DNA from: a virus | Taxonomy: Duplodnaviria > Caudoviricetes | Virus record (IMG/VR): IMGVR_UViG_3300025366_000006 | Span: 1-55,371 of that record | Length of the DNA stretch: 55,371 nucleotides | Reading direction: 5' to 3' (one strand) | Part shown: positions 1-54,891 of the stretch, one piece after another | Layout of the letters: the number at the start of each line of letters is the position of its first letter | Numbering within the stretch: the stretch's first letter is position 1 | Translations under genes and position numbers: made by a program | The notes under the pieces: generated by a model | The model's database searches: none | Told to the model about the DNA's origin: nothing | Seen by the model: the letters and a program-made list of their open reading frames with translations, nothing else

Positions 1-877
1 TAGGTTGAGGCTTTTCTTCTGTTGCTCCAAGTTTTTGAGCCGCAACATCTACTCCATAACGAATTGGCTCTCCAGCAACCGCACCAATTCCAGCTTGAGT
101 TGCCGCTTGACCAAGAGCAGGGCCAAGGCCTTCTGCTAAATACTTTGTTCCATACCCAAGGGCAGATTCAGCGGCTAATGGAAGTTGAGGAACATTTTGA
201 CCTATGAAAGCAGTCTTTGGGTATGCTTGCTGTGATGCTTGAACTTCTGGTTCAAATCCAAACTTCTTTTCAATTTCTTTTGCTCCAAGTTGACCCGCCT
301 TCATTCCAGCAAAGAATGCAGGAACACCAGCAACAAGTCCTATTGGCCCCGTAGTTGGTACTCCAATAGCTTCAGTTATTGCTCCAGCACCAAGACCGCC
401 AAGCAATCCCATTGTTCCTTCAAATGTTCCAGATAATGCAGAAGTAAGCTGGCTAGGTTTTGATTGTTGCTCTGGCGGCAATGATTCTAAATTAATCGTC
501 TTTCCAGTTTGCTCTGATGGAGATGCACCCAAGAAAGCCAATGCATCTTCCTTGCTTATTCCTTGTGATCGTTGAGGCGTAGCTTGAGGAACTGATTGCG
601 TGTAATTAGAAGTTAAATTATTTGGATCAGATGATGGCAATTCTGGCTCTGGAATAGGAGCATTCAAATAAGCCGAATCTGGAATAGGTGCTTTTTGTTG
701 TTGTTGATTTACCCCAAGAAATGCCAAAGCATCCTCTTGACTCATGCCTGTAGCCTTTTGTTGAGGAGCTAACTGTATCCCTTTTTCATCTGGGGACATC
801 GACTCTGGTTGGGCTGGTGTACCCAACTGATTCCCTTGAGATGGATTTAGAAAAGCAAGTGCTTCATTTTGGTTCAT
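1..877 (-). CDS. Giant internal virion/polyvalent protein, N-terminal part, allele A (runs off window; absent from ORF track)
   Basis: Hand translation from ATG 877 (ATGA overlap with upstream stop): [56 protein letters not shown]. It continues in frame and nearly identical to the 2263-aa protein. Confidence 0.9.
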   Translation of the reverse strand, partial: MNQNEALAFLNPSQGNQLGTPAQPESMSPDEKGIQLAPQQKATGMSQEDALAFLGVNQQQQKAPIPDSAYLNAPIPEPELPSSDPNNLTSNYTQSVPQATPQRSQGISKEDALAFLGASPSEQTGKTINLESLPPEQQSKPSQLTSALSGTFEGTMGLLGGLGAGAITEAIGVPTTGPIGLVAGVPAFFAGMKAGQLGAKEIEKKFGFEPEVQASQQAYPKTAFIGQNVPQLPLAAESALGYGTKYLAEGLGPALGQAATQAGIGAVAGEPIRYGVDVAAQKLGATEEKPQP

Positions 878-1917
878 TTACTTGGAAAGGCTTGTAGCAA
901 TTGAACCGCTTGATCTTGACTGATTTTTCCAGCTTGGAAAGCAGATTTCACATCATCTGGTGACTTAAATGTAGCATTTCCTTGTTGCATTCCAGAATCT
1001 TGATCCTGCTGTTGGGAAGGTGCTGATTGAGATTTAGAAGAAGGTATCCCGCCAATTCCTTGAAGTTGTTGAATACCAGTTTGCATTTCTGCAACCGTCT
1101 TTGGATTAGTGCCTCCAAACATTCCCAAAAATGGTTTTCCTTTTGCTTGTTCTTTTTGAATCAAACTATTTAGGTTAGGAATCTGACTTTGGACTTGTTG
1201 ATATGCGGCTTCAATTTGTGGGCTTGGAACCGCTTGATTTGCATAAGCACCTTGAGCTTGCTTATAAGCAGATACTTTAGATGCGAAAGACCTTATATCA
1301 GCGGCATCTGGAGTAGATCCGCTTGCAACTGCATCTTGGATTTTTTGAGCAAGCGAGCCAATACCTTCGTTTTTATCAGTACCACTATAAAGAGCATTAT
1401 AACTATTAATCTGATTAACATTTGCATCTCTATTCATCTTATCAAGTCTAGCTTGATCAAGAGGCGAAAGTGTTTTCCCTTGAGGTTTATAATCTGGATT
1501 AACTTGTCCAGTAGAAGGATCAATAAAGCCAGGATATTTAGCGGCTAATGCTAGATTTTTACCCTGCAAGAATGCTTGCGTCCTAGCCATATGCTGTGCG
1601 TTGATATTGGCAGATTGGGCAGTAGTAATAGCGTGTTGAGCAAAGGGCTGAAGCAAAGGAATCTGTGATGCTGTAGCGGCGGCTCCATAGATGTCTGCCA
1701 TGCCGTTAGGATCACCACTAGCAATCTTCTGCATACCTTGCTGATAGCTTTGCTGAAGAGCAGGGAGCATAGCTTGAGCCGCTTGAGTCTGTGCATGAGT
1801 CTCAATAGCTCCAGCAATCTGCTGACCAAGGCCAGCCATAGAGTTGATAACTTGTTGATTACCCTGCTGGATCGTAGAAAAATTGGCGTATCCGATTGGC
1901 ATAGTTTTATTGTCCAA
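874..1917 (-). CDS. Putative DNA ejection/internal virion protein, allele A
   Basis: Q/A-rich helical protein between pilot-like gene and giant protein. The first 42 aa are identical to 53818..54891. Confidence 0.7.
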   Translation of the reverse strand: MDNKTMPIGYANFSTIQQGNQQVINSMAGLGQQIAGAIETHAQTQAAQAMLPALQQSYQQGMQKIASGDPNGMADIYGAAATASQIPLLQPFAQHAITTAQSANINAQHMARTQAFLQGKNLALAAKYPGFIDPSTGQVNPDYKPQGKTLSPLDQARLDKMNRDANVNQINSYNALYSGTDKNEGIGSLAQKIQDAVASGSTPDAADIRSFASKVSAYKQAQGAYANQAVPSPQIEAAYQQVQSQIPNLNSLIQKEQAKGKPFLGMFGGTNPKTVAEMQTGIQQLQGIGGIPSSKSQSAPSQQQDQDSGMQQGNATFKSPDDVKSAFQAGKISQDQAVQLLQAFPSK

Positions 1918-2911
1918 ATGCAGGAACCATTACATTTGTCCCTTGTTGATAAAATCCACCCCCAGGTTGGTTATATGCTCCATATCCTGTTGCGGCAGGA
2001 AGCCCTCCCATAGTGTTTTGATAGCCTTGTGCAGAAGGAGAAAGGCTTTGTAAATAACTAGCCTTGTTCAAAGCATTTGCTCCCTCCAATCCCAATTGCC
2101 CCAACTGCAATCCAAGTTGTGCCTGTTGCTGATTTTGCAATTGATTGGCTTGGTATTGGTTAAAGCCACCTTGGTACTGGCTCTCTGCCAACTGATTGCC
2201 CAATCCAGCGGCAGATGCCGCAAGTTGTGATCCTAGTCCAGTAGCTTGCAATGTCCCCTGCATTCCAGCTTGGAATCCAACAGTAGGAGAAACTACCATT
2301 TGATTGGCTAGTTGTTGCCATGTAGGAGCGGCACTCAATCCGTATTGAGAAAGACCAAGGCTTGTCTGTCCAAGGTTACGAGCAAAGTTCTGTGGAGCCT
2401 GTCCACCGCCAGTAAAGAGATTAAATCCACCACCAAGATTCTGTGCTACTTCACGATTGATTTGTTGCTGAACATCTAGGGGGATTTGTCCTTGGATGTA
2501 AGAATTAAGCTGTCTATTGGCTAATTCTCGTTGGGCAGAAGAGCCAGGTGTAACCAAATTCTGAAGGGCAATCTGTTGTTTGGTTCCTTGTTGTGCAAAT
2601 TGCTGTCCAAGATTTAGGGCATTCTGTTGTGCTTGGTTATAAACATTTGTCCCAAACTGTTGAGCTTGGGGGGCCATTTGATTGTATTGCTGTTGCTCTA
2701 ACTGCAATGCCTGTTGTGGACTAAATTGCGGAAGTCCAGATCCAGTACTAGATCCTCCTCCAAATAATCCAGATCCTCCAAGCCCTCCAATCAATCCTCC
2801 TACTCCTGCTCCAACGGCAGTTCCAATACCAGGAACAACAGACCCAATCATCGCTCCCGATGCGGCTCCACCTAATGCTCCCGTTGCTGTTCCAGATCCA
2901 GAAAATGCCAT
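1907..2911 (-). CDS. Putative DNA pilot/ejection protein
   Basis: Gly-rich hydrophobic N-terminus (GALGGAASGAMIGSVVPGIGTAVGAGVGG) then Q-rich helices. It sits after the adaptor, as in podovirus ejectosome operons. Confidence 0.7.
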   Translation of the reverse strand: MAFSGSGTATGALGGAASGAMIGSVVPGIGTAVGAGVGGLIGGLGGSGLFGGGSSTGSGLPQFSPQQALQLEQQQYNQMAPQAQQFGTNVYNQAQQNALNLGQQFAQQGTKQQIALQNLVTPGSSAQRELANRQLNSYIQGQIPLDVQQQINREVAQNLGGGFNLFTGGGQAPQNFARNLGQTSLGLSQYGLSAAPTWQQLANQMVVSPTVGFQAGMQGTLQATGLGSQLAASAAGLGNQLAESQYQGGFNQYQANQLQNQQQAQLGLQLGQLGLEGANALNKASYLQSLSPSAQGYQNTMGGLPAATGYGAYNQPGGGFYQQGTNVMVPAFGQ

Positions 2912-8747: not shown

Positions 8748-10976
8748 TTAAGCATTTACTGAAGTAGCAATTCTATACCAGTTTCCATATGCTCCACAAA
8801 GAGCAAGGGTAGTACGATTATTTGCTGTAACATTTGCTACAAGATAAATATTGCCACCATTTTGGATGGCACAAGTTGATTGGAAAAGAATATTCAAGAT
8901 TCTACCTTCAGAATTGTTTACTCCAACGATTGCTGTTCCAGCGGCCCCCACTCCAGATCCAGAAGAAAAATCAACAGAAGGAGGAGAAGTATATCCAGAT
9001 CCATAATTAGTCATCGTAACTCCAATTATTTGTCCTTGGTTATCTACAGCGGCGGTAGCGGCGGCTCCTGCACCTCCACCTCCAGAGAAGATAACAGGCA
9101 CACTAGAGTTAGGAGTATATCCAGATCCACCATTAGTTACTTGGACATCACTAACTTTTTGATAAAAAACATCTTGGCTATATGTTCTTATGTTATTTAT
9201 TGTCGTTGTTCCAGTAATGTAAAATGTTTCAACATAGTCTGGAATCACTAGCGTACTTGCGGCAGTAAATGTTGGAATAAATGCATTATATGTATCAGCC
9301 GCTAAAACATAATTTCCTTTAATTTGAGAACTTGCATAAGAAATAATCCCGTTATTTACAGCAGAAGCACCTTGAATATAATTATCGGAAATTAATGCAT
9401 TAATAGGAACTCTTGAAATAAGTATTCCAACACTATTTGCATTACTATTTAGATAAATGCTATTATTAGAAATTGTTGCATATGATCCAATGGTTGGAAA
9501 TGGAGATGTTGAGCTTGCTCCATCAACGCCAGCAAATCCGATTCCATAACATTGTGTAGATCCAGCCATTTGGATGTTATTTCCAATGCATGAACATGAA
9601 ACAGATGCACCAATATTTATAAAAGTTGCCGATGCATTTGCTGTAGCTCCTTCCCATTGGCATTGGTTATTAGAAATAACGCTATTAAAACATCCACCAG
9701 CATCAATTCCGTATACTTGGTTATCTCTTGTAGAATTACCACTACAAACAGAATTTGCACAATTAAACAAAATTCCTCCAGCATATGATGTTGAATAACC
9801 ATTTTTATAACATACATTTCCATTAACTGAACCATTAGATCCTTGGAACATTAAGCCATAAGACCCGTTGTTTCCACAAAGGTTGTTTGCTATTACAACA
9901 TCATCTGATTGAGGAACGGTTGGGCCATAATAAGGATTTGATGGTGTTCCTCCTGTATAATAACCATAAACTCCAATTCCAATACCAGAATTGTAAATTG
10001 CTTTATTATTGGTAATAATTAAAGAATTTGAAACATTTGCAATCGGAGGGAATACATAATTAGCTACGGATACGCCATTTACACCATTAGAAATAAAAGA
10101 GTTTCCATCTAATGTTATATACCAATCTTCATTAAGATAAAATCCAGAACCATCATTATTTTGGCATATGTTATTATTAAATATTGATGGGGTCTTTGTT
10201 GTTTTGCCAAGACCCATACTATCAACAAAACCAGCACCGTATCCACTAACAGATTTTGCATTAATAAATGAGCATTCCTCTACGATCCATTGGTAGCATT
10301 GATAAACAGTAAAGTTATTAGATCCGTATGTTTGATTTGCTTTATTCCCATCAAAGGTAATGCCTTTAACAATAAAGTTATTGTTAGATGTAAATTGTAA
10401 AATGCTATTGTTGTTTGTTTGAGATGAAATTCTTTTTAGGATGGTTTTATTAATCCCATCTCCATATATGTTAATATTGCTTATACCACTTAAATAAGTA
10501 ACAGAGTATGTTCCAGCAGGAATATACAGACTCTTGTTTGTGGCGGCGTTAATTGCCGCTTGTAATGCTGTAGTAGAATCATTTGTTCCAGTAGGATCTG
10601 CACCATAATCAAGTGCATTAATTGTGTCTGCAAATCTATTTGCCAATGTCCTTGGTGTATTTGATCCAGTAGCAGTTACCAATGCTTGGTTTGGATCTGA
10701 AGTTACACTAGCAAATGCACCCAATTGACCAGTAGTTGTCAAACCAACATAAAAGTTAATATCTTGGGCGGCTACCTGTTGAAGATTAGGCAATAGAATT
10801 GGAGCCTGTATGCTTCCATCTCCAAATCTTGTTACGCTTCCATCGTAAATAACAAATGCTGGATTCAATGGAGGGTTTAACCTTGCCACTTGATTCCCAT
10901 TTGCCCATACCAATGGCCCTACGCCTTGGCTTACAGGAGGAATAACACTAATAGGTACTTGAGGAGGACAGGGCAT
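8748..10976 (-). CDS. Tailspike with pectate-lyase-like right-handed beta-helix
   Basis: DYGADPTGTNDSTTALQAAINA, LYIPAGTY, Asn-ladder repeats, C-terminal VTNGGSGYT/TNYGSGYT repeats. Confidence 0.85.
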   Translation of the reverse strand: MPCPPQVPISVIPPVSQGVGPLVWANGNQVARLNPPLNPAFVIYDGSVTRFGDGSIQAPILLPNLQQVAAQDINFYVGLTTTGQLGAFASVTSDPNQALVTATGSNTPRTLANRFADTINALDYGADPTGTNDSTTALQAAINAATNKSLYIPAGTYSVTYLSGISNINIYGDGINKTILKRISSQTNNNSILQFTSNNNFIVKGITFDGNKANQTYGSNNFTVYQCYQWIVEECSFINAKSVSGYGAGFVDSMGLGKTTKTPSIFNNNICQNNDGSGFYLNEDWYITLDGNSFISNGVNGVSVANYVFPPIANVSNSLIITNNKAIYNSGIGIGVYGYYTGGTPSNPYYGPTVPQSDDVVIANNLCGNNGSYGLMFQGSNGSVNGNVCYKNGYSTSYAGGILFNCANSVCSGNSTRDNQVYGIDAGGCFNSVISNNQCQWEGATANASATFINIGASVSCSCIGNNIQMAGSTQCYGIGFAGVDGASSTSPFPTIGSYATISNNSIYLNSNANSVGILISRVPINALISDNYIQGASAVNNGIISYASSQIKGNYVLAADTYNAFIPTFTAASTLVIPDYVETFYITGTTTINNIRTYSQDVFYQKVSDVQVTNGGSGYTPNSSVPVIFSGGGGAGAAATAAVDNQGQIIGVTMTNYGSGYTSPPSVDFSSGSGVGAAGTAIVGVNNSEGRILNILFQSTCAIQNGGNIYLVANVTANNRTTLALCGAYGNWYRIATSVNA

Positions 10977-11124: not shown

Positions 11125-12777
11125 TTATGTTCCTGTGCTTCCGCTCAAAACCCAAACATTAGATATAAGTTGCAATGTAACAACAGCATAACCACCACCA
11201 GTAGAATATTGGCTATTAACATTTCTCAAAACTGATGGTGATGCGGCTTGGAAGGTTGTTTTATTTCCTCCAAATTGGATAACCTTAAAAGAAAACCCAG
11301 ACACCAATGGTGTAATGCCATCAGTATCATAATATGGCAATGTTACTGTACAAGTAGATGATGGATTTATTGCAATTGTTTGATCCAAGTAATTACTATT
11401 AATAGTTAATGAATTAGAAGTGTAATAGATATATCTAGATTGAGGTATAACTGCAAAAATAGAATTAGTAGAAGTATTTCCATTTGATAATTTCAAATTT
11501 CCAGTTGAATTATCATGGATAAAAGAAATTTGAGATAATTGTTTTTGGCTAGTTATAAAATTAGCCCATGTTCCTGTTGTTCCATTATCGTAAACAAGAA
11601 CACCATTATCTAAAGAACCTTTAACTGCATTAATTGTAATTCCATCAGCATATTTTGATAAAGTTTGTGAATCAATATATTCGTTAATTGGTGCTATTGT
11701 AACATCAATAAACTTTTGATATTGAAAAGTAGTTGGATCTACTACTCCATTTTGAATTTCACAAAAGGCACTAAATCCTGTTCCTGCCAATTGTGTAACA
11801 TTTGAGAGTATTGCAGTGGCATCCGATCTTGATGTTGCTTGATTTGTTCCTTGATAAACAGAAAGATACATTGCATCAATTTCTCCAACATTTGCTTGTG
11901 TTGCAGAAGTCCAATTATCTTTGTATATCTGTATAAATTTTCCAAATTTAGCACTTGATGGGCCATTTAACCCACTTCCAGATGTTCCAATTATATCAGA
12001 GGTGCAAAAATATTGTTGATTTTGATGGTTGGCTGGAGCCTGATAAACAAAAGGATCTACACAAAAACTTGTAGAATTAAGTTGAGGAGAGATTTTATTT
12101 CCAGCAACAGTTGAACTTTCAAACTTAAATCCTATCCCATCTGGTAATTGGAAATAAGTATAATTGTAATTACCGTTAGGGAAATAAACCGTAGTAGCAC
12201 CAATCGAAACTGCATAAGCAACGGCGGCTTGAATAGCGGCAGTATCGTCTGTAGTTCCATCACCAGTAGCCCCAAAGTCTTTTACGTTAACAACATCAGC
12301 AAAACGATTTGCAAGCGTTCTTGGTGTATTTGAACCAGTAGCAGTAACAAAAAGATTAGAAGGAGCAAGCCAACTTGGAGAACTTGTTCCATTACTTTGC
12401 AACAATTGACCCGTTGCTCCAGCGGCAGTAAATCCTGTTGTGTTTAATCCTGTTTGATAAACAATCTGGCCAGCCGCACCACCATTGATATTCGTTGCAT
12501 TAGCAATCTGTTGGGTAGATGGAGGGTAATAGCTCCATAATCCAGTTGCATTTGTTCCAAGCAAGTAGCTTGGAGTTCCTTGGTTTACTTGGAGAAAAGG
12601 AAGATTAATGGGATTCTGTGCAGATCCATCAGCAACCACAAAAGTTTGCCCATTCCATGTTTGGAGAGCGGGGTTGGTTCCAGGTACTACGGGGTATTGA
12701 TTTCCGCACCCACAATAGCTCCAGCCATTCACAACTGGATTAGAACCACAGCAAGATTGATTTTGTGGATATTGCAT
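11125..12777 (-). CDS. Second tailspike/fibre with pectate-lyase-3-like entry motif
   Basis: VNVKDFGATGDGTTDDTAAIQAA, VYFPNGNY; shares VTATGSNTPRTLANRFAD with 8748..10976. Confidence 0.85.
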   Translation of the reverse strand: MQYPQNQSCCGSNPVVNGWSYCGCGNQYPVVPGTNPALQTWNGQTFVVADGSAQNPINLPFLQVNQGTPSYLLGTNATGLWSYYPPSTQQIANATNINGGAAGQIVYQTGLNTTGFTAAGATGQLLQSNGTSSPSWLAPSNLFVTATGSNTPRTLANRFADVVNVKDFGATGDGTTDDTAAIQAAVAYAVSIGATTVYFPNGNYNYTYFQLPDGIGFKFESSTVAGNKISPQLNSTSFCVDPFVYQAPANHQNQQYFCTSDIIGTSGSGLNGPSSAKFGKFIQIYKDNWTSATQANVGEIDAMYLSVYQGTNQATSRSDATAILSNVTQLAGTGFSAFCEIQNGVVDPTTFQYQKFIDVTIAPINEYIDSQTLSKYADGITINAVKGSLDNGVLVYDNGTTGTWANFITSQKQLSQISFIHDNSTGNLKLSNGNTSTNSIFAVIPQSRYIYYTSNSLTINSNYLDQTIAINPSSTCTVTLPYYDTDGITPLVSGFSFKVIQFGGNKTTFQAASPSVLRNVNSQYSTGGGYAVVTLQLISNVWVLSGSTGT

Positions 12778-21594: not shown

Positions 21595-24202
21595 TTTCTT
21601 GTCCAAGTTGCGGGTTGCTTTGCGTTACTGCCTCTTGACCTTGGATAGCTTGTTGTTGAGCCATCATGTCTTGAGCGTTCATTTGTTGGGTTTGATCCAA
21701 CTCTTGTTCATGTTGATCCTGCATAGCTTGCAAGTTATGGGCGGCTTTTGCACGATGAATTTGAATGTCATTTGAGGCCTTTGCTCTCTTGGTCGCAAGA
21801 TCGGTTGCAACCCTTTCCATTGCATTGGCATTGTGAAGCTGTGCTTTCTGTGCCATTGCCGCAAGTTTGATGTCTTCCTTCTTCTTGAGGCTATCAGTCT
21901 CAATGGCTTCCTTGGCAACCAAGGCTTGTAGCTTGATGGTATGAGGATCTTGATTTCCTCCCTGTCCTTGCTGTTGCTGTTTCGCTTTCTCAAGCTGTGC
22001 AAGCTGGCTACCAAGCTCATCGGTTCCACGCTGAAGCTGTTGCATCTGTTGACCAAACTGCTTTGCGAGTTCTTTCTTGGTTGGATCTTTTTGGATAAAT
22101 CCAAGATGTGCAGTAAGGTGTGGCCCCTTGAAGCGAATCAAACAGGCATAGATGTCTTTGATAAGCTCCACGGCTTCTTCAGAGACTTGCTGTGCTTCTT
22201 GTCCACGGGTGGGTGCTTGAGGATTAACTCCAGCAGATTGAAGAGCCTGTTGAGCTTCCTGCATGGATGCGGCGGCATCTTGAATATGACCCTTGAAATG
22301 CTCAACATGGTTCTGATCGGGATACACACGGAAGTTTGCAACATTGCCCTTTGGATCAGTCATTCCAATATTCTCCATCGCAATAATTCCCTGTTCATCT
22401 GGGATTTCAACCTTGGACTGACGAATATAACGATTGACATTCTGGCGACCATTAAGGGCGGCAATAGCATCAGAGATTGCATTGGCTTGACCCTCGTTCA
22501 TAGGAGTCATGCCTGTAAGAGAAACAGTCTGTTGAGCCGCCATCAGTTTGTAGCTTGGGCTTCCAGATCCAGAAAGCATATTGCTCTCAAGGTTTTCAAT
22601 GTTTTCCCATTTATATGCTTCTTTGGGAACACCATTTTCTTCCATGAAATCAACAAACTTCTCTTTGAGTTTGTATCCGTAGCCACCTTTTGTGGTTCGG
22701 CTCATGCGTTTGAATAGCATTTTAAGCCAGCGGGTTTGATTATCGTTAAACCTACGGATTTGAGTTCCCTGGAGCTTTGCCGATTCAGCGGCATCCATCT
22801 GGCTCTCTGCTTTGGTGCGAGCTTTTCCGCTCTTTTGGTAATTGCCAATATTGTATGCACCGATTCCACGATACATATCAGCTTGATAAAACTGGATTCC
22901 AGCAAGGACTTCTTGGAAGGGAATATTGACCGATACTTGATGAGGCTCAACATCTTGAGGGAGAACCATCCAAGGCATCCACTCCATTTGTTTCAGCTTC
23001 TTGGTAGATTCAGCAGAACCACCCTTAAACATAAGGCGTGTATTCCAATCTACAGCATCCATGAACCTATTCATATGAATGTCATAGGCTCGACATTGGA
23101 TGAAAACAGATTCAGCAAGTCCTTGGATCTCATGCCAGATGCCAGATCCAGTAGAGTCTGTCATAGGGGCAATGATGTCTTCCCAACCATCCTCATCCTT
23201 TTCTACCCAATCTTTTTTGTAATAAAGGAATCCTGTCTGGTCACGATACTCTTCTTCAGTAAGATCCTTGCGACCATTTTCTTTGTAACCAAGAACAAGT
23301 CCTCCATAGTTTTGGAGCAAGAGCATCTTGGATATGCTTCCATTGAACTCCATGATATAAAGCTCATACAACTCAATGCGTAGCGTGTAGAGACGAGAAA
23401 GATTCATATTGCCAGAGGCAACGTCACGCAACCATTCCGTATTGGTATATGTATTGCGATAATTTGTGGTAAACATTCGCAGGGCATCCACGCAAGCCCA
23501 GAAGTTCCAACCCATATCAGTAGCGTGTTTCTCTGCCTTTACTGGATCTTCTTCCCCGCCAGTAATCTTGAGCCAGAACTCAAGGGGTGTGTAGCTACGC
23601 TTGATGCACATCTCACCCAAGTTCGTGAGATCGGCATATGTTTTATCTGGAATCAGAACATTGGAGTTGTGAAAGCTCTTGGTAGGCCATCCATCTCTAT
23701 CCTCTGCAATTTCAAAGCCCTTTCCATACAGGGTCATTTCTTCAACATCCAACTCAACATTGTAATTGTATGATGCCCAAGAGCGAAGCATACGATCAAA
23801 TCCAACACTAATAATATCGCTCCATTCTTTCTTTTCAGTTGGATTCCCTAGCTTTGTCGTGATGGTTGCGGCAGTATTACGCTCCATAACCATGTCCACA
23901 AAACTAGACTTTTGGTTATCAACGATAAACTTCATCTGACGGAATGGCACATTGCTCATTCCAGAAAGTTGACGAGAAGCTACTTGGCTATAATCAGTTG
24001 GAGGGAAGCCTTTATAACATTTAAAAATTCTTCCCCATTTTCTTTCTCTTCCTGCGTTGTCCAATCGAAGGTTCCAACAAATTGTAAAAGCATCGTTAGC
24101 CGTTTGAACACGACTTGTGGGAGCTACACCATTAGAATTGATAGTGTTGAATCCCCAAGAGGAAACTCCTTCACGATTTACGATCTTTTTTGTTTTAGCC
24201 AT
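21587..24202 (-). CDS. Portal protein with long C-terminal helical extension
   Basis: 871 aa; MTLYGKGF and GIWHEIQGLAE motifs; Q-rich C-terminal coiled coil; upstream of the scaffold. Confidence 0.75.
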   Translation of the reverse strand: MAKTKKIVNREGVSSWGFNTINSNGVAPTSRVQTANDAFTICWNLRLDNAGRERKWGRIFKCYKGFPPTDYSQVASRQLSGMSNVPFRQMKFIVDNQKSSFVDMVMERNTAATITTKLGNPTEKKEWSDIISVGFDRMLRSWASYNYNVELDVEEMTLYGKGFEIAEDRDGWPTKSFHNSNVLIPDKTYADLTNLGEMCIKRSYTPLEFWLKITGGEEDPVKAEKHATDMGWNFWACVDALRMFTTNYRNTYTNTEWLRDVASGNMNLSRLYTLRIELYELYIMEFNGSISKMLLLQNYGGLVLGYKENGRKDLTEEEYRDQTGFLYYKKDWVEKDEDGWEDIIAPMTDSTGSGIWHEIQGLAESVFIQCRAYDIHMNRFMDAVDWNTRLMFKGGSAESTKKLKQMEWMPWMVLPQDVEPHQVSVNIPFQEVLAGIQFYQADMYRGIGAYNIGNYQKSGKARTKAESQMDAAESAKLQGTQIRRFNDNQTRWLKMLFKRMSRTTKGGYGYKLKEKFVDFMEENGVPKEAYKWENIENLESNMLSGSGSPSYKLMAAQQTVSLTGMTPMNEGQANAISDAIAALNGRQNVNRYIRQSKVEIPDEQGIIAMENIGMTDPKGNVANFRVYPDQNHVEHFKGHIQDAAASMQEAQQALQSAGVNPQAPTRGQEAQQVSEEAVELIKDIYACLIRFKGPHLTAHLGFIQKDPTKKELAKQFGQQMQQLQRGTDELGSQLAQLEKAKQQQQGQGGNQDPHTIKLQALVAKEAIETDSLKKKEDIKLAAMAQKAQLHNANAMERVATDLATKRAKASNDIQIHRAKAAHNLQAMQDQHEQELDQTQQMNAQDMMAQQQAIQGQEAVTQSNPQLGQENG

Positions 24203-24591
24203 TACCCGATTGCTTTGTTTAATGCCTCACGGCGGCGTTGACAAGATGGACAATTCTTTGCCCTTGTTTCCAATTGGGCATTGATGCCGAATGTAGAAGC
24301 AACCTTATCACCGAGATGAGCAAATTTGTGAATTACGTTTGCTACAGCATCGCCAGCTTCTTGCCAACAATACTGACCAGCAATACGCTGACAAATTTGT
24401 TGTTCAACTAGATATTCTAAATTTTCTGGAATAGCAACATTCTTATTAGTCATGTCTGACTTAACCTTTTGAATGAATTGCCTTCCAAATGTGAGATCCA
24501 TTCCGTTTACACGATAGGTATTTCCTTTATCGTCGCTATATTGATACCAAAGGCCACCAGGGATTGCGTCATTAGGATTCTTGAGCTTCAT
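24202..24591 (-). CDS. Hypothetical protein with CxxC
   Basis: IPGGLWY, CPSCQRRREALN; coupled to the portal start. Confidence 0.65.
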   Translation of the reverse strand: MKLKNPNDAIPGGLWYQYSDDKGNTYRVNGMDLTFGRQFIQKVKSDMTNKNVAIPENLEYLVEQQICQRIAGQYCWQEAGDAVANVIHKFAHLGDKVASTFGINAQLETRAKNCPSCQRRREALNKAIG

Positions 24592-26611: not shown

Positions 26612-26769
26612 TAGATGACCTCGCCCCCTATCTCGCAGGAAATCCCCATTGGAGATTTTTCAGGGGCGAGGAACCTTTGAAGAAACCCAAGTGCCGATCC
26701 TCCTTGTTTCTGCGACTCAAGGGGAGAAGGCGGTCGAGGGTATAGGAGCTGCGGTATCCCTTAAGCTCC
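26612..26769 (-). ncRNA. Candidate structured small RNA
   Basis: ORF-free; begins about 7 nt after a TTGACT-17-TAAATT promoter; multiple stems whose G.U pairs favour the minus strand. Confidence 0.55.
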
Positions 26770-26775
26770 AAAGAA

Positions 26776-26813
26776 AATTTATTGTTGACGCATGGATTAG
26801 TCAATAACATATT
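26776..26813. promoter_or_regulatory. Overlapping divergent sigma70-like promoters
   Basis: Plus TTGACG(26785)-17-CATATT(26808); minus TTGACT(26804)-17-TAAATT(26781). Confidence 0.6.
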
Positions 26814-26819
26814 CACCGC

Positions 26820-27043
26820 ATCTGAATGGTGAAGCATTCTGGTAACACTTTCCTAAAACAAAAAGAAAAGCCCCGCTGTAGTGCTTCACCACTCGGCGGG
26901 GCTTGTCCGTTACAGCAAGTGAGGGTGGGTGTGAATTCGTACCACATGACCCAACAACAACGGCTTTGGAGAATCAAAACTCCTTACCCGATGGTTGGGT
27001 AAAAATGTACTGCCTTCAGCAAAAGCAGAGGGTAGTGATTTTT
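26820..27043 (+). ncRNA. Candidate small RNA or leader, with an 18-codon ORF at 26946-27002
   Basis: Promoter upstream; 11-bp stem 26868-26904; terminator-like hairpin 27008-27037 followed by ATTTTT. Confidence 0.45.
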
Positions 27044-31096: not shown

Positions 31097-31170
31097 TACG
31101 GGATGGTGTAAAGGTAGCACAGGAGACTTTGACTCTCCTAGTCATGGTTCGATCCCATGTCCCGTAGCCA
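31097..31170 (+). tRNA. tRNA-Gln (TTG)
   Basis: Acceptor TACGGGA/TCCCGTA, anticodon arm GGAGA-CTTTGAC-TCTCC, T arm CATGG-TTCGATC-CCATG, G discriminator and encoded CCA. Confidence 0.95.
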
Positions 31171-47022: not shown

Positions 47023-50000
47023 TTATAGTATGTCACCAGACTTTCTACGACCACCGACAGATCCTCCAAGTATATTTGAAGATGATGATCCTGCATGGCT
47101 ACCCCTTGGTTTTGACATTGGCAATTTTTGTCTTAATCCAGGTATTCCCTTCATGATTTCCTGTTCTAATGTTTTTGGAGAACGCTTGATTGGCTCTGCC
47201 TCAATCATGTCAATGAAATCCTTTGGTTGTGACTTTGTATCCATCTTTGCGGCTACATCTTGAACTGCTCCAGGTATAAGCATATCACGGAGAGTTTGAC
47301 CAACTTTCTGACCAGCAGTTGTGAATGGGGAGAAGAATCTTGTAGCGGCTTGTGCTGGAGGCATACTTCCTAGTCCAGATACAAACATACTAAAGAAAGC
47401 TGGCTCTGAAAGACTACTCCACTTGCTGTTTGGGTTATTGCGAACAGATTTATCATACATCCTTCGTGCATCAGCAACCATGTTCATATATGTGGCAACA
47501 GGGCCGTGACCTAAAGGACGAGCAATCTTTATTCCCCCAAGTTCCATTTCTCCCTTTTTGAGATCCTTGTTTTCTGGGGCATTAGGGCCAACATTGTTTA
47601 TGATGCCACCAAATTGATTTGAGTGAGTCCAAGCATAAGCACCAATTGCAATACCAAGAGTCCCATATTTGAATGCTCTCATTATTTGCTCTGCCTCTTG
47701 AGTAGTTAAAGCCTCTGCTCCGTTTGCCAGCTTGCCTTCTTTTGCGGCAATTGCTAATCGAGTAGGAAATTCACCAATTAATCCACCAGCTAATCGCATT
47801 TTCCTAATAGCGATATTTGTCGGAACATTCATAACTGGCATGGCAATATCCATTAACGCAGATACAAACTTTCCGAGGCGAGGCGATTGTTTGTTTGCTT
47901 CAAATCCTCGCATAAGACCTCTAATTCCACGGGTGATAAAATTATCTCCCATGAAAATATCCATGTTTGCATCATTAACAGCTTCAGATGCTAGGATTTG
48001 ATAAAGAACTTCATCATTAGTAGGATCTAGCCCCATTTTTTCAGCGGCATCTATGCGTAATTGTAGAGAACGAGAGAAGATACCTTGTCGAACAGGCTCT
48101 TTCATTGCTCCGTGAATATTCTCAACAGCCCTAACAAAAGAAGGAGCATAGTTATTTTTTCCTCCATATAGCCAATCAATATCTGTTTTGCCTTTTAGCA
48201 ACTTATTCCAAATATCTTTTGCTGATGTCGCTATTCCAAAAACTCCCTTGAGTTCTGACTTTGCACTTAATCCACCTTCGTAAACAGCTTTCCTTCTAAT
48301 GGCATCAAGTGTTTTGTTGAAACGGAAAAGTTGAGAAAGAGTAGAAGATACTGGTCGTGTAACAATATTCTCGACAGCGGCTCCAGCCAAATGCTCAAGA
48401 ACCGTAACATGACTCAAAATGTTAAAACGATTCAATGCAGATATTGCATCAAGAACTTTATTAACTGCTGGTCTATTTGCCTTTTCAAAATCAGCCCTAC
48501 GCTTGTCAATGCGATCTTTGATCTTTTGAGCTTCAATGCGGAGTCTTTTGGTTTCCTCTGATGGCTCAATAGGAGCTTTCTTTACAGGCTTGCTAAAATC
48601 ACCTTTCTTTTGGCGTTCTTCTTCCTGTTTTAATTGCTCAAGCCTATTTCTAGCCCTTGTTTCTTGACCTTTGCGAATCCTTTCTTCTGGAGATGCGGCT
48701 TTGGAAACACGCTTATTTACTGATTTAGAACCCTTGGATTCTTTATCAATCTGTTTCTCATTAAACTCTTTGGATTTCTTAAATATATCATCTAAATAAG
48801 GACGAATCTTTTCTCCAAATTCACCAATCATTTTTGAAGACCAATCAGCAAATCTTGTTGTTCCTTCAAGAAGATGATCAGCACCGATAATTGCATAATC
48901 AGCAATATCAGTTGGATCTACTCCAGTAAAAAGCCTTCCCTCTGCTCTCCTTTGTCTAATTCTCTCCCTTGCGGCATCAGCGGCACTAGAAACATTTTTT
49001 CTAACACGATCAACTATGCTTTGAATATAAGGATCAACTTGAGGAGCATTCTTAATTTCTTGTTCTGCTTTTTTCTGCTCTTGTTTGTTTGCCTCTTTTT
49101 CTTGTGTCTCTGCTATCTCTTTATCAATTTCAGTAAGACGCTTTGTTTCTTCAGCAAGTTTTGTTTTCTCATTTGAAGTAAGGGGCTTTCTCTTTGCGGC
49201 AGTAGCAAGCCTTTCTTGAGTAGCAAATGTGTAATCTTGGTGAAGCAATGCTTGCCTCCAGCGGCCTTCTCTTCCCCACTCACTTCCTCTGTCTTTGATT
49301 GCTTGAAGAAGATCATGGTAAGCCTTGCTTGCATTATCATAAGCAAGACCCTTTTCAAATCTCTGTTCTGGACTTCCTTCTGTAAGCCCTTCTGCCATTT
49401 TGTTAAGGCTATTAAATAAATCAGTCTTATGCTTCAAAAGCAAAGCCGATTCATCTCCTGTTAATGACCTTCTAGGATCTGCAATAAGAGATTCTGCCAA
49501 TCTTTGCCCTGCCATTGGATCTTCTGCACTTGTGGCTTTAGCACGATCCATTGCGGCATTCATCTCTTGCTCGTCTTGTTGAGTAAGTTCTGGAAGACCA
49601 AGAGCTTTTGTTTCTGCATCTGCATTTTCATTCTTCAGAGAAATTTTCTCTCCAGATGGTTCGGCGGCAATACCAGCATAAGGTGCAGGAGGCTTTGGCG
49701 TTCCTGTAGCACTAGCATAAAGATCAGATGCCTCACGGGAGGTAATGCCAGGGAACTTCCTAGACAGGATGTTCTGCATCTCCTCTTCTGTAATAGGAGT
49801 ACCACGACCCTTTAGGAGAGCATCAGCGGCTTTCTTTGCAAATGATTCTCTATCAGTAGGAGCTTTAGGGCCGTATTTAGCTTCAGCTTCACGCTGTGCC
49901 TGTTCACGGGAACGACCGCCTGTATCAGATCCACCGCCAATATCTTTGTTCCAGTTGTCCCGAACGCCAGCCCAGATGTCTTTGAGGAAGTCACGAACAC

Positions 50001-53000
50001 CTTCTCCAAGTCTGGAGATCATTTTGTTAGACCAATCCTTAAAAGAAGTTGCTCCTTTCCTTATGGAATCTCCAACCTTGATTGCGGCATCATAAATAAT
50101 GCGAGGAAGCTCGGTATATGCACCTTCTCCACGATTACGCCTACGCAAGTATTCAAAATGATCTCGCAATACTTGTGCTTCAATTTCGGCTAGTTTATCT
50201 GGATTGTCTTTAGCGGCCTCTATTTCTTTTTGAGCATCTTCTAGCTTTTTAAGTTCAGAATCTTGTTGAGCTTCTTCTTTTTCAGCCCGTAGCGTTGTGT
50301 CAGATTGGCTTTTAATGTAATCCCAAAGTTGATCGGGAGTTTGTATATCAAGAGCTTTCCCATCCATATGAAGCCCTAGAATGGCATCATTGGGGGTTTG
50401 ACCTTCTCCATATTTTCCATAGAGGCTATCAGAGTGTCTTTTGGGTAAAGTTGGTACTGATCCATATTCTCCTTCGCCTGGAGTTTCTCCCCTCCTTCTA
50501 AGTGCTTTCTGCCAATAGAATTTGCTCTGAAGTTTATTTGCTTGAAGGTATTCAATAATGTCATCTCCAGCACCAAATGGTCGAGCTTTCTCTTTTGGGC
50601 CTTTCTTTGGCTTTGGCTTGCCATAGGCATCAGCTTCACGATTTACCTCATTAATCAGCTTTTCAACTTCTGGATCAATATCAGCACCAACATCCATAGC
50701 CTCATGGAACCTATCTATGGCATCCTTTAAAGCTTGGTTGCGTTGCTTCCTAGCTACCTTAAAAAGCTCGGAAACAAGTTCCTGTGGAGTACTGATAGAA
50801 TCTTCTTCCCCGCTTTCATATCGACGCAATACTTCTGTATAGGGATTAGTTTTTGGAGCTTTAGGCTTTGGAGCTTTTGGCTTGCCAGCTTCAGCATCAA
50901 TCTTATCAAGCAGCACTTTCTCTGCTTGTTGTTCTTCAGTAAGAACTACTTCTGCTGGTTGTGTTGGTTCAACTTTCTTTTCAGAAACAGGAGATTCAAT
51001 TTTGGTTGATTCTTTCTCTTGCAACCAATCAAGAAATTCACGCACAGGAATACGTTCTGGCTTCATTGTTGATCTAGGATCAACAATGCCCAAAATGTAT
51101 TTACCATCTGGGCTTAATTCAGCCTCGTTCCACTCATTAAGAAGATCATTTACTGCATCTCTTCCCCTTGTTTTAACAAGATTCGGAAGGGTTTCTTTTG
51201 GTTTTGTTGCAGATGTCTTTGGCTTTTTAAGCCACGCCTCTGGCAATGAATCAGTTTTTCCATCAGGGAATCTTATGGTTACATCCCTAGATAAAGGATC
51301 TTTGCTTCTTGAGACAATCTCTACTTGAGTTCCTTTTGGGTAGCCTCTGTAATCACGATTTGTATTCCTAGTGTTTTCTGTAATAGGCGTTACTTCTTCT
51401 TGCGGCTTTTCCCCGCCTTTGACAGGGCGATTGCCACCGCCTGTTTCTGCGGTTTGCCGTGTTTCATCTCCGTTCGGATGTTCTGGCTGATTACCTTCTT
51501 CGACTTTCCTTGTTTTAGGGGCATTTGGTTGTGTAGGTTGTGCTGGTTCTTCAGCGGGTTTCTTTTCAATTATGTCAGAATGCTTTGCAGGAACATATAT
51601 TTGATCCTGCATTTTTGTCTCCATAACTAAATCATCATATGGAATACCATAAAGTTTTTTAGAAACTTTGTTTTGTGCATTTTCTAATTCATCTCCATTT
51701 AAGAATCTTCCACTAGTTTTACCCTCTGGGAACTCTGGATTCCATATTTTCCTAACCTCATCATCAACTTTTGATAAAACATCGGTAGGATATTTATCAA
51801 AAAATCCATGAATAACAATTGCATCATTATTGTTTTTATTAAGTTGATCCTTTAACCAAGAATCAAACATATGAGGTCTTGTTTCTCCAGTTTCTTGCTT
51901 CCATTTATTAACAAACTCTCCAACATTATCTGGAGTTATAATAAGTGGATTCTTTGGAGTAATATTTACTTCATTTCTATTTGCTCCAAGTTTAAGAAAA
52001 TCCATTGATTGCCATATGTTCTCATGGCTTGGTTGCATTGCATAAAAACCAGATCCATAGACATTATCTGCATATTCAGATCCCATGTAATCTTTTGAAA
52101 GATTCATTGGTTCTTTAGAAAAGTGAATTGCAGAAATAGTTTCTCCAGCTTTTGGAGTTGGTGCTTCAGCTACAGGAGCTTCAGCGGGTTTGGTTTCTTC
52201 TGATATTACAAGTTCTCTTTGCTTATTTAGATCAGCTTGTTGTAAACGAATTTGATCAATTCTGTTCTGAATTTGCCTCCTACCAATACTCCCTTCTGGG
52301 TATTTTGGAAGTTCTTCTATAACAAGCCTATTTTGCTCATTCGTAAGGTCTTGAAGTTTTTGGTTTAAATCAGAAACAGGCACAGGAGCTTCAGCGGGTT
52401 TATTTAATGCATCAATCTGTTTCTGGATAGCCGTATGTTCTGGCGATCCTTCCTCATGGAAAAGCTGTTCCGTAAGGAGGCTAGTCAAATCTTTGGCAGG
52501 GGCGGCAGTAGAAACAGGAGCAGTCTCTACAGGCTTTGGAGCTTCGGGAATAGGAGCTTGGGCATCAGCGGCGGCATTGATAGCCGCCTCACGCTGATTG
52601 ACTACAGGATTGGCAGAAGGAGCCAACTCTGGTGCTTTTGGCTCATACTTTCCTCCAAGGCCAGCAAAATATGCGGCAGTTTCAGCAACACTACCTGGCG
52701 TTATAGGTTGAGGCTTTTCTTCTGTTGCTCCAAGTTTTTGAGCCGCAACATCTACTCCATAACGAATTGGCTCTCCAGCAACCGCACCAATTCCAGCTTG
52801 AGTTGCCGCTTGACCAAGAGCAGGGCCAAGACCCTCTGCTAAATACTTTGTTCCATACCCAAGGGCAGATTCAGCGGCTAATGGAAGTTGAGGAACATTT
52901 TGACCTATGAAAGCAGTCTTTGGATATGCTTGCTGTGATGCTTGAACTTCTGGCTCAAAACCAAACTTCTTTTCAATTGCCTTTGCTCCAAGTTGACCCG

Positions 53001-53814
53001 CTTTCATTCCAGCAAAGAATGCAGGAACACCAGCAACAAGTCCTATTGGCCCTGTTGTTGGAACTCCAATAGCTTCAGTTATTGCTCCAGCACCAAGTCC
53101 TCCAAGCAATCCCATTGTTCCTTCAAATGCTCCAGATAGAGCAGAAGTAAGCTGGCTAGGTTGAGGAGGTTCTTCTGTGGGAATAGGAGAAGTCAAATAA
53201 GCCGAATCAGAAGCGTTTGTTATAGGAGCAATTGGTGTAGAAGAAGGCTTTGCTTGAGGTTGCTGTGCAGGAATCAGATCAGCAAATGGATCGGCAGATT
53301 GTTGTTGAGACGGAGCATTAGCCGCTTGCTGTTGTGGTATCAAATCAGCAAATGGATCTTGCTCTTGATTCTTGCCAAGGCTTGTATATGCACCCTCACC
53401 TTCTGGGACTTTACCAAAATTCTTTAGCAACTCTCCAACTCCTGTAGCGGTTTTAGGGATTTGATTAGCTGGAATTTGACCAATAGGAACAAGATTCCTA
53501 GTTCCAGATTGCCCCGTGTATTGAGAAGGAGGGGTATAAATATCAATTACATTAGGGTTTTTATTCCCATGCTTGTCTCCAGCAATATAAACTTCGTTTG
53601 TATCAGCGTCCCTAAAGATAGTTCCAATAGGATGAACGCTAGGATTTACGGCTACTATGCCAGGGCCAAGTTCATTTTCTGAAGATCCAACGCCCCTAGC
53701 TGTTCCTGCATCATACATTTCATCAGCACCCCCTGCTGATTTTGGAATGCTGTATGTAGTTACAGGCGTACCCGCCTCGCCTTGAGGAATAAGGTCGGCA
53801 AACGGATCAGCCAT
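47023..53814 (-). CDS. Giant internal virion/polyvalent protein, allele B (3D-like domain, hydrophobic segment, ART-like domain, SH3-like domain, long helical C-terminus)
   Basis: 2263 aa at the end of the ejection operon; DPFADLIP x3; VAVNP..PIGT..AGD..IDIY; H..YGSGFY..KNPL..DAIVI. Confidence 0.8.
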
Positions 53815-53817
53815 ACC

Positions 53818-54891
53818 TTAAACTGCTGAAGATTCCTCTTCTGTTTCTGATGTGGGTTCTTGCTCTTCTGGCTGTTGACCCATTCCGCTGGCGGCAGGAA
53901 TCATTGAGGTAGGTTGTCCAGCGGGAATAGCAGACCCTTGAGATGCTCCTTGAGGATTTAATGCACTTGCATCAATTCCATGATCTTTAAGCCTTTTCAT
54001 AACAGCGGCAGGGTCAGCACCTTTTTGAATCGCATTTCTTGCGGAGTTTAGAAGGGCATCTTGATTGCCAGCAGATGCTTTAGCCGCACCAATTGTGCTT
54101 GGAGCAATAGTTTGGAATCTACTTTGCATCGTTTTGAAATCTTCACCAAGAGGATGTTGGTTTATGTTGCCAATAAATGGCAATGACATTCCACCAGTTT
54201 TAGCATTTGGATCTTGCTGTACTTTTTGTTGCAAATCTTGAGTCTTAACTCCAAGTTGGGAAATAGTATTCTCAAAGTTTGGGTCACTAAATTGGATGCC
54301 TTGGCTCGCAAGATCACCTTTATAGGCATTGTATCGAGCAATTGCATTAGCAACTGAACTTGCTTTTTTCTCATCTCCAGATGGATCAAGAAAATCTTCC
54401 ACATTATCTTTAACGCCATCCCAAAGAGTATTGGCTCCAGCACGATATTTGGCTATTAGATTTGCCCTTTCATTTGCTGTAATTGGCTTTTGCTGTATTC
54501 CAGCACCATATCGCAGATTTGCTCTTTGCATTGCTCCCTGTTGAGCGGCAAGAGTTCTCAATCCATGTTGTGTTTGGATATTAGCGGCATTAGCAAGATT
54601 GATTGCATGGCTTGCCATAGGTGCAAGAAGAGGGTTTTGAGATGCAGTCAAAGCCGCTCCATAGACATCTCCAATCCCATTGGGATCTCCACTAGCGATT
54701 TTTTGCATACCTTGTTGGTATTGGCTCTGCAACATAGGCAACATCGCTTGTGCAGATTGAGTAGCGGCATGAGTCTCAATAGCTCCAGCAATCTGCTGAC
54801 CAAGGCCAGCCATAGAATTGATAACCTGTTGATTGCCCTGCTGGATCGTAGAAAAGTTGGCGTATCCGATTGGCATAGTTTTATTGTCCAA
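53818..54891 (-). CDS. Putative DNA ejection/internal virion protein, allele B
   Basis: Same N-terminus as 874..1917, different C-terminal half with ARNAIQKGADPAAVMKRLKDHGID. Confidence 0.7.
   Translation of the reverse strand: MDNKTMPIGYANFSTIQQGNQQVINSMAGLGQQIAGAIETHAATQSAQAMLPMLQSQYQQGMQKIASGDPNGIGDVYGAALTASQNPLLAPMASHAINLANAANIQTQHGLRTLAAQQGAMQRANLRYGAGIQQKPITANERANLIAKYRAGANTLWDGVKDNVEDFLDPSGDEKKASSVANAIARYNAYKGDLASQGIQFSDPNFENTISQLGVKTQDLQQKVQQDPNAKTGGMSLPFIGNINQHPLGEDFKTMQSRFQTIAPSTIGAAKASAGNQDALLNSARNAIQKGADPAAVMKRLKDHGIDASALNPQGASQGSAIPAGQPTSMIPAASGMGQQPEEQEPTSETEEESSAV

Follow-up and report, generated by a model that had tools for sequence, protein, structure and literature searches.

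Of the virion components of short-tailed phages, the ejection proteins are understood least, and an open question is how the capsid retains a protein of more than 2000 residues and how it leaves as an ordered thread. The closest described systems, cited here from excerpts of the respective accounts, include those of T7, N4 and P22. In T7, gp16 opens with a transglycosylase domain (residues 1-156), followed by a 'molecular tape' (157-228) by which gp15 is cemented and its C-termini are stabilised (PMC8954989). In N4, the giant virion RNA polymerase gp50 has been proposed to follow gp51 out via an interaction between gp51 and the gp50 N-terminal domain (PMC13434306). In P22, SieA exclusion is escaped by mutations located in C-terminal parts of gp16 and gp20, and ejection-protein genes of foreign origin confer partial resistance (PMC10461980). 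Here we describe two adjacent genes, for an upstream protein (U) and a giant protein (G), in IMG/VR virus record IMGVR_UViG_3300025366_000006 (Duplodnaviria; Caudoviricetes), whose 55,371 bases were analysed as a whole and are called the window. In a group of uncultured freshwater phages, a cassette that crosses the boundary between the two genes is exchanged as a unit; its variants seem to form a set of matching plugs and sockets that would join U and G by putative binding.

Like T7 gp15 and the N-terminal part of gp16, U and G are encoded by consecutive genes ending the structural module, and the larger protein may likewise combine a hydrolase domain, a segment for binding its partner (gp15 in T7) and membrane-active stretches (PMC8954989). 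The arrangement of genes for a small membrane-active, a middle and a large protein, side by side as the last three of the structural operon, corresponds to that of the T7 class by position and size only. No sequence or fold similarity to the T7 proteins was found, U has half the size of gp15 and G nearly twice that of gp16, and the contact would be made here by three short repeated peptides and a hairpin of 30 amino acids. Several interchangeable families exist here, whereas the excerpted T7 account mentions no such repertoire (PMC8954989). As proposed for N4, a giant ejected protein would trail a smaller ejection protein through its own N-terminal domain (PMC13434306). However, the N-terminal domain of gp50 is predicted to form two globular helical subdomains instead of a disordered leader bearing repeats, the excerpt describes no allelic families, and no homology of the N4 proteins to U or G was detected. 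The P22-like phages share with this locus mosaic ejection-protein genes, in which C-terminal regions set exclusion sensitivity and foreign genes can be swapped in (PMC10461980, PMC8954989), but neither a matched pair spanning a gene boundary nor a repeated peptide is described in the excerpted texts.

Full-text searches of the literature, judged mainly by their listings, found no description of matched, interchangeable hairpin-peptide cassettes between ejection proteins. Short docking peptides occur in other phage proteins. In the branched tailspikes of Klebsiella phages, the short N-terminal 'conserved peptide' of a secondary receptor-binding protein plugs into an anchor domain, and the modules recombine; those are, however, external tail proteins with a single peptide copy and a single conserved docking type, unlike the many co-varying types found here. 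Capsid-targeting sequences, as in the internal proteins of T4 or in P1, where DarB depends on Hdf/DarA, are short N-terminal signals with a hierarchy among internal proteins. To our knowledge, such signals are single-copy, are not accompanied by an adjacent gene for a partner hairpin and have no allelic families. The polyvalent proteins of phages and conjugative elements are reportedly giant, modular and probably injected (Iyer et al. 2017); G differs from them in that Pfam finds no LPD or other domain in it. What appears to be new here are allelic families of matched hairpin-peptide pairs, while the functional idea has, by analogy, precedents in T7 and N4.

One locus in two alleles

A sequence-only reading of the window had described 460-1792 and 53163-54766 as alternative sequences between near-identical flanks, each spanning a gene boundary. 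Comparison of the window with itself by blastn, together with the gene coordinates, bears this out. The flank 1-459 matches 52704-53162 at 96.5% identity and the flank 1679-2397 matches 54653-55371 at 91.8%, whereas 460-1678 and 53163-54652 are unrelated, save for a 29-base patch (651-679 / 53180-53208). The protein strings quoted in that reading are all present, and their coordinates were checked. Its view of two loci within one genome did not hold. The first 2397 bases of the 55371-base record repeat the last 2668, an overlap of about 2.4-2.7 kilobases (kb) that leaves a phage record of roughly 52.7 kb; close relatives have 51.5-53.8 kb, several of them with direct terminal repeats. Since the record ends overlap and relatives carry direct terminal repeats, 460-1792 and 53163-54766 are two versions of a single locus, designated alleles A and B, which the record passes twice on a genome that is circular or terminally redundant. 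The same cassette also occurs twice, 51 kb apart, on one metagenome contig of 129,632 bases (loci L068 and L069), presumably one phage genome that was assembled as a concatemer.

Both alleles were traced in four freshwater runs that contain allele A by aligning the contigs to the allele B end of the window. In all four runs, a long contig (1960 to 37555 bases) bridges 53208 to 54767 with 1113 other bases, the path of allele A, and this joint agrees with the right edge of the exchanged segment (1792 / 54766). The stretch specific to allele B is covered in the same four runs by identical short contigs, with at least 4, 5, 1 and 3 pieces among those listed. Allele B was found only on such short contigs with lower per-contig depth figures and allele A on long ones; depth being one figure per contig, the contigs tell which forms occur and are bridged but give no allele ratio. 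Thus, alleles A and B coexist in the same freshwater runs. These contigs do not support the alleles independently because the runs may be the record's own source.

The features of the two alleles, all on the minus strand, are:
1-459, minus strand: allele A copy of the shared flank within the giant gene (96.5% identity with 52704-53162)
460-877, minus strand: allele A leader of G, amino acids 1-139; its start codon overlaps the stop codon of U
530-559, minus strand: allele A peptide 3, ISKEDALAFL
716-745, minus strand: allele A peptide 2, MSQEDALAFL
848-877, minus strand: allele A peptide 1, MNQNEALAFL
877-1902, minus strand: allele A U, 342 amino acids from MPIGY, stop codon at 874-876; residues 1-119 conserved, the rest swapped (sequence, AlphaFold2 model)
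883-972, minus strand: allele A predicted C-terminal helical hairpin, family T2, TFKSPDDVKSAFQAGKISQDQAVQLLQAFP (AlphaFold2 model and alignment of types)
1679-2397, minus strand: allele A copy of the shared flank that comprises the U N-terminal domain and the preceding gene's end (91.8% identity with 54653-55371)
47023-53814, minus strand: allele B G, 2263 amino acids, with moderately hydrophobic Gly/Ala-rich stretches at amino acids 232-277, 1799-1818 and 1980-2003 (sequence, hydropathy)
53164-53814, minus strand: allele B leader of G, amino acids 1-217, the swapped part
53269-53292, minus strand: allele B peptide 3, DPFADLIP
53335-53358, minus strand: allele B peptide 2, DPFADLIP
53365-53757, minus strand: globular insert that separates peptides 1 and 2 in allele B, also present in modules of family T3d; weak 3D-domain match (PF06725, E 0.049, below cut-off)
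53785-53808, minus strand: allele B peptide 1, DPFADLIP
53821-54876, minus strand: allele B U, 352 amino acids from MPIGY, stop codon at 53818-53820 (sequence, AlphaFold2 model)
53821-53958, minus strand: allele B predicted disordered tail behind the hairpin, with MIPAASG and an acidic end (AlphaFold2 model, sequence)
53959-54063, minus strand: allele B predicted helical hairpin, family T1, QDALLNSARNAIQKGADPAAVMKRLKDHGIDASAL (AlphaFold2 model)

The U proteins of the two alleles are 80% identical over residues 1-119 and unrelated beyond. A swapped C-terminal domain had been proposed; the swap is real, but it comprises the last two thirds of U (from residue 120) and not the small domain alone. 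AlphaFold2 models of both U proteins, built on alignments of relatives, are helical and end in a short hairpin behind a low-confidence linker, in line with the small helical domain expected at the end of U in both alleles. The allele A hairpin is predicted with helices at 315-323 and 329-337 at a predicted local distance difference test (pLDDT) score of about 80, that of allele B with helices at about 272-284, 289-298 and 303-306 at pLDDT 80-85, while the linkers ahead of the hairpins stay below 50. In the model of allele B, the hairpin is followed by a low-confidence acidic tail of 46 amino acids. A motif G(G/M)(I/L)P(A/S)(A/S) occurs near the hairpin in every family, before it in T2 and T3 and behind it in T1; the copies in the window are MIPAASG within 53821-53958 and GGIPSS at about 990-1010. 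This motif may act as hinge, processing site or recombination joint.

The G proteins of the two alleles are 95% identical from residue 133 (A) or 211 (B) onward and unrelated before. ALAFL occurs in three exact copies in the first 140 amino acids of allele A and DPFADLIP in three in the first 217 of allele B, a number reached in 0 of 20000 shuffles in either case. The peptides are 7-10 amino acids long and lie, as three repeats, in low-complexity leaders that are probably disordered, judging by their sequence alone. With a small folded domain (by hairpin pLDDT) in one protein and short peptides in a seemingly disordered region (by leader sequence) of the other, the locus has the make-up of a domain-peptide pair. 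The same architecture had been claimed for both alleles and is indeed present, although allele B has, in addition to its acidic tail, a globular insert of about 130 amino acids between peptides 1 and 2 that allele A does not have. The match of this insert to the 3D domain PF06725 (E 0.049, 14.3 bits) is under the Pfam cut-off of 23.8, whereas a glucosaminidase domain (PF01832) in the leader of a relative (L094) scores 36.3 bits, above the cut-off of 30.2. In U, G or the preceding protein of 334 amino acids, no 19-residue hydropathy window reaches 1.5; the Gly/Ala-rich stretches in G, one of them directly past the leader, show up only at 1.0. The layout of the leader, with a putative hydrolase insert, extended peptides and then a membrane-like stretch, fits an ejection set.

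Further sequences recur within the leaders. PIGPxGExLNLPPNTGAxNxYG between peptides 1 and 2 is common to several families (e.g. L008:5081-6100, L007:4859-5878), as is LPxSDPNNLTSNYTQSVPQxTPQ between peptides 2 and 3 (compare 560-640 of the window), and T2 leaders retain QPESMSPDE(V/K)G behind peptide 1.

Hairpin and peptide families among relatives

Relatives were collected with the conserved N-terminal domain of U as query, giving 24, 79 and 42 loci (144 in total, many of them duplicates). U was found by a parser in 128 of these; the other 16 were read via coordinates, 4 of them being cut by contig ends. The main set comprises 113 loci or alleles with a complete U and at least 250 amino acids of G, which reduce to 63 distinct modules, the remaining 33 being excluded. 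In a wider set, at least 60 amino acids of G were required (125 loci, 73 distinct modules). By pattern count, the modules of the wider set carry three peptide copies in 53 cases, two in 15 and one in 5, the lower counts being partly due to truncated contigs or missed variants.

There are at least four cassette families with about 15 sub-types. Family T1 has peptides of the (D/N)PFADL type (variants GLFDDLL, NPFDSLPD, DLFANIPV and SDPxDAF) and a hairpin of the form AIxxGxDPxxVxxxLK, followed by a tail. In family T2, the peptides EDALAFL and DIDAFLD go with the hairpin GNATFxSxxxVxxAFxxGxIxxxQAxQLL at the extreme end of U. Family T3 combines the peptides NVYEQFL, DPYAQYF, NPFAKYV, NVFDQFD and NFFEQFL with the hairpin AIxxLxxNPxTxxxFDxxFGxG and an acidic tail behind it. 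In family T4 (two modules, L059 and L046; the same type in genome G007), G opens with two repeats of about 27 amino acids, FDxxGAxKAGYxxxxI, and U ends in a short peptide, PPLTSFYR, without a hairpin. T4 may represent the same contact with the roles reversed, which is a guess.

Hairpin and peptide belong to the same family in all 63 distinct modules: T2 in 16 of 16, T3 in 13 of 13, T4 in 2 of 2, and the other 32 are all T1, the T1 hairpin pattern itself catching 18 of these 32. A check set beforehand was whether the type of domain predicts the type of peptide or the two assort independently. Cross-family hairpin-peptide pairs number 0 among the 63 modules, and concordance extends to the sub-types. 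In T3, about eight sub-types of the hairpin each appear, as judged by eye, with a peptide sub-type of their own, the three peptides changing in concert. None of the 73 modules of the wider set mixes peptide families; 17 had been flagged as mixed by degenerate patterns, and these were rejected since the same T1 peptides were matched by both the T1 and the T3 pattern. Unsupervised clustering yielded 13 hairpin clusters and 15 peptide classes in 20 combinations, with a single cycle that lies within T1, between DLIP and DLPN variants. A first, crude clustering had not separated the T2 from the T3 hairpin windows or the T1 from the T3 peptides and was replaced by the family patterns and the later clustering. 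Two double changes convert a hydrophobic residue to a charged one on both sides: ELF to AKY in the hairpin with QFL to QFD in the peptide, and QAVQLL to QARELI with ALAFL to IDAFLD. From the sequences, these two changes may be read as contacts.

Cassette edges, linkage and possible partners

Both outer flanks of the cassette recombine freely. Peptide class and G backbone occur in 40 combinations with at least 15 cycles, and hairpin and the middle of U in 24 combinations with at least 3 cycles. The exchange of the cassette as a unit, also expected from the sequence-only reading, is seen with tight edges in L008 (T3) and L038 (T2). Their cassettes of 529 and 435 bases lie between flanks of 97.3% and 88.8-96% identity, and they differ only in the last 66 or 47 amino acids of U and the first 100 or 98 of G. 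Likewise, L020 (T3b) and L087 (T2) rejoin in G at residue 107 or 110, with 97.5% identity over 1120 bases, and alleles A and B of the window represent a further swap, T2 versus T1. The edges fall at conserved junctions, GGLPS ahead of the hairpin and PEQTGKxINLP behind peptide 3; the latter is found once in 6 of 10 giant proteins scanned and is absent from 4, including that of the window, never occurring more than once per giant.

Such swaps could also result from linkage and diversifying selection without any direct contact. The U end and the G head would be exposed surfaces hit by host or prophage exclusion or defence; joint replacement would then follow merely from adjacency and from the near lack of homology between families for crossover. 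Only about 10-200 bases separate the hairpin from peptide 1, the breakpoints cluster in GGLPS and PEQTGKxINLP, and the SieA-escape mutations of P22 lie, in the excerpted account, in the C-terminal parts of ejection proteins gp16 and gp20 (PMC10461980), all of which speaks for this explanation. However, homologous segments do exist within the cassette and have been exchanged across families, yet 0 of 73 modules mix peptide families. The 3D-like insert is common to T1 (L063, L023, L080) and T3d (L081, L092), with 84-87% identity at the amino acid level and 88% over 404 bases, and in L081 T3d peptides stand on both sides of the T1-shared insert, together with a T3d hairpin. The linker between peptides 2 and 3 is common to T2a and T3a/T3b, that between peptides 1 and 2 to T1b and T3a, and the acidic tail between hairpin and peptide 1 to L057 (T1d) and L065 (T3a; 70% over 23 amino acids, low-complexity). 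This movement of homologous interior pieces between families without hybrids is the most telling line against mere adjacency. Furthermore, three peptides spread over up to 200 amino acids change in concert with the hairpin at the level of sub-types. Overall, we regard linkage without contact as unlikely.

The shared insert also bears on the idea that the peptides are fence or processing motifs, marking the joints for insert swaps or serving as protease sites that free the hydrolase insert. Peptides 1 and 2 do flank the insert in T1 modules. However, the 88% identity of the L063 and L081 inserts is confined to the stretch between the peptides (bases 3220-3623 of L063), which places the breakpoints beside the peptides and not inside them. 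Insert-free leaders still keep three peptides, no protease gene was identified, and the co-variation of a hairpin in another protein is left unexplained. This makes the idea very improbable.

A third explanation is that one kind of signal for a common partner is present in four copies, namely the hairpin helix and the three peptides, all of which would then have to be of one type; the partner would be a host envelope or cytoplasmic factor or another virion protein. A folded receptor typically has short acidic-hydrophobic peptides from disordered regions as ligands, the T3 peptide NVYEQFL resembles the hairpin segment NQFDELF, and a comparable likeness in T2 had led the sequence-only reading to hint at a helix swap. 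Across the 15 classes, however, this resemblance is not significant: the mean best ungapped BLOSUM62 score of the peptides against the C-terminus of their own U is 10.84, and 1572 of 20000 permutations of the classes reach it, so that the helix-swap hint is not sustained.

Other segments linked to cassette type were sought in eleven related phage records plus the window by cutting each reference genome into fragments of 40 amino acids in all frames and scoring these in the 12 genomes. For T2, the best-sampled family (reference G002), only 4 of 1094 fragments score as similar throughout the 4 other T2 genomes and as dissimilar throughout the 7 non-T2 ones. These four fall within the hairpin and the G leader, with a margin of 5 points for the next best fragment, and no other phage segment among the 1094 fragments tracks T2. 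For T3 (two genomes), the linked segments are the cassette and an HNH endonuclease insertion, and this insertion was dropped as a candidate third partner. For T1, they are the G leader, stretches at about 26.7-27.6 kb of the window shared with G003, and fragments in a nuclease-like gene at about 46.4-46.6 kb; with G009 added, only two fragments are left, at about 26.67-26.85 kb in a stop-riddled, apparently non-coding stretch. The tailspike-like genes do not track cassette type in the 12 genomes, which argues against a host-specific factor, and two cassettes between near-identical flanks coexist in the same runs. A protein of 871 amino acids beside the terminase gene, which is a portal by position only and has no family match, is 84-95% identical to that of the window across types. 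As a further test for a third partner, the near-isogenic pair G001 (T3) and G002 (T2) was insufficient, the genomes being mosaic at about seven places. The scan, a small sample, weakens the case for a phage-encoded or host-range-linked third partner, and we consider a common partner quite unlikely.

The T7 and N4 precedents, taken by analogy together with the order of putative hydrolase, peptides and membrane-like stretch, make a contact between the tail of U and the head of G the most economical reading. We give about an even chance to a direct cognate contact between the U hairpin and the G peptides, as putative binding between a gp15-like and a gp16-like ejection protein; the docking interpretation of the sequence-only reading is thus partly supported. 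In a complex prediction with alignments for the allele A hairpin (49 amino acids) and the first 36 amino acids of G, a single pair without controls, the score was 0.22, compared with a mark of 0.32, and weighs neither for nor against binding.

The proposed mechanism is as follows. U (about 350 amino acids, all helical) and G (2200-2500 amino acids) are encoded by the last two structural-operon genes of a freshwater podovirus-like phage and would most likely be the gp15-like and gp16-like members of its ejection-protein set. U terminates in a predicted helical hairpin of about 30 amino acids on a flexible linker. G opens with a leader of 100-220 amino acids carrying three acidic-hydrophobic peptides of 7-10 amino acids, the first at or beside Met1, with a probable insert of the peptidoglycan-hydrolase type between peptides 1 and 2 in many relatives. 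Each peptide would dock on one U hairpin, so that one G would take up three U or would gain avidity for an oligomer of U. The G head would thereby be fastened to the U tail, serving either capsid loading or an exit in which G trails U through the tail and is placed at the periplasmic tunnel. What the sequences show are the anatomy, the co-variation, the cassette edges, interior recombination free of hybrids and two cassettes in one population; the binding, its stoichiometry, the virion location and the ejection role of U and G are inferred. The hairpin and the three peptides would co-evolve and recombine only as a unit because the contact must match. In its strict form, an orthogonal docking code in which each hairpin binds its own peptide family only and the cassette type decides on co-assembly of U and G, the proposal seems rather doubtful.

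Several points weigh against a direct contact. No homology of U or G to the ejection proteins of T7, P22 or N4 is detectable by sequence or fold. Many loci are near-duplicates from related lake samples, and the number of independent events is therefore far below 63. The types were set after inspection of the data, and the unsupervised clustering resolves them less finely. The T1 peptide variants DLIP and DLPN have no one-to-one relation to hairpin clusters, and the T1 and T3 peptides overlap in form, so that any 'code' is not sharply discrete. Because hairpin and peptide 1 lie so close together, linkage alone predicts much of the concordance, and the sole interior segment shared between them is the 23-residue low-complexity acidic tail with its 70% identity. 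The scan rests on about three T2 lineages (five genomes), two T3 genomes and three T1 genomes.

If U and G do make this contact, the candidate interface would be exact and very small (a 30-residue hairpin and an 8-residue peptide), with many natural matched versions and crossed pairs as natural negative controls. Phage mosaicism would be constrained by protein-protein contacts across a gene boundary, and orthogonal tags for engineered cargo loading might be derived. Should the code be orthogonal as well, co-infecting strains with alleles A and B would be assembly-incompatible at this point, a 'mating type' of virion proteins limiting phenotypic mixing and hybrids, and nature would provide orthogonal tags for loading giant cargo into capsids. 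Even if the reading is wrong, the cassettes provide a clean map of tolerated and untolerated recombination in a very mosaic region.

Identity, gene context and further features

U and G match no PHROG or Pfam family, with 0 Pfam families in the 2263 amino acids of G, nor any of 50,697 phage records (INPHARED, tblastn). The best E values were 0.17-0.26 in PDB sequence searches with U and G and 0.19 in a Foldseek search of the PDB with the U model. In the ESM Atlas, the nearest named clusters to G carry LPD38, LPD3 and ART-PolyVal domains at 0.77-0.82, below 0.9, which is a lead only; by Pfam profile, no LPD or effector domain was found in G. Gene order and the inserts of the peptidoglycan-hydrolase type, rather than homology, suggest that U and G are ejection proteins. 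On the minus strand, the order is tailspike-like genes (11125-12777, 8748-10976), which are pectate-lyase-like, then a glycine-zipper protein, U and G:
1907-2911, minus strand: preceding protein of 334 amino acids with a glycine-zipper stretch at amino acids 8-53, gp14-like by position only (sequence)

The stretch at about 26670-26850 of the window has stop codons in all frames, and its conservation is restricted to the window, G003 and G009 (85-97% for a single 40-residue frame fragment); a search of Rfam with it gave no match. Upstream of the gene for the 871-residue protein, the first gene (24202-24591, minus strand) encodes a cysteine-bearing protein of 129 amino acids with CxxC near its end, which has no family match and is conserved in 12 of 12 genomes. 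HNH endonuclease genes (147-173 amino acids) lie between these two genes in some relatives only (G001 and G005, with G003 having one nearby), and the window has none there. Finally, a tRNA-Gln gene with anticodon TTG is located at 31097-31170 of the window.

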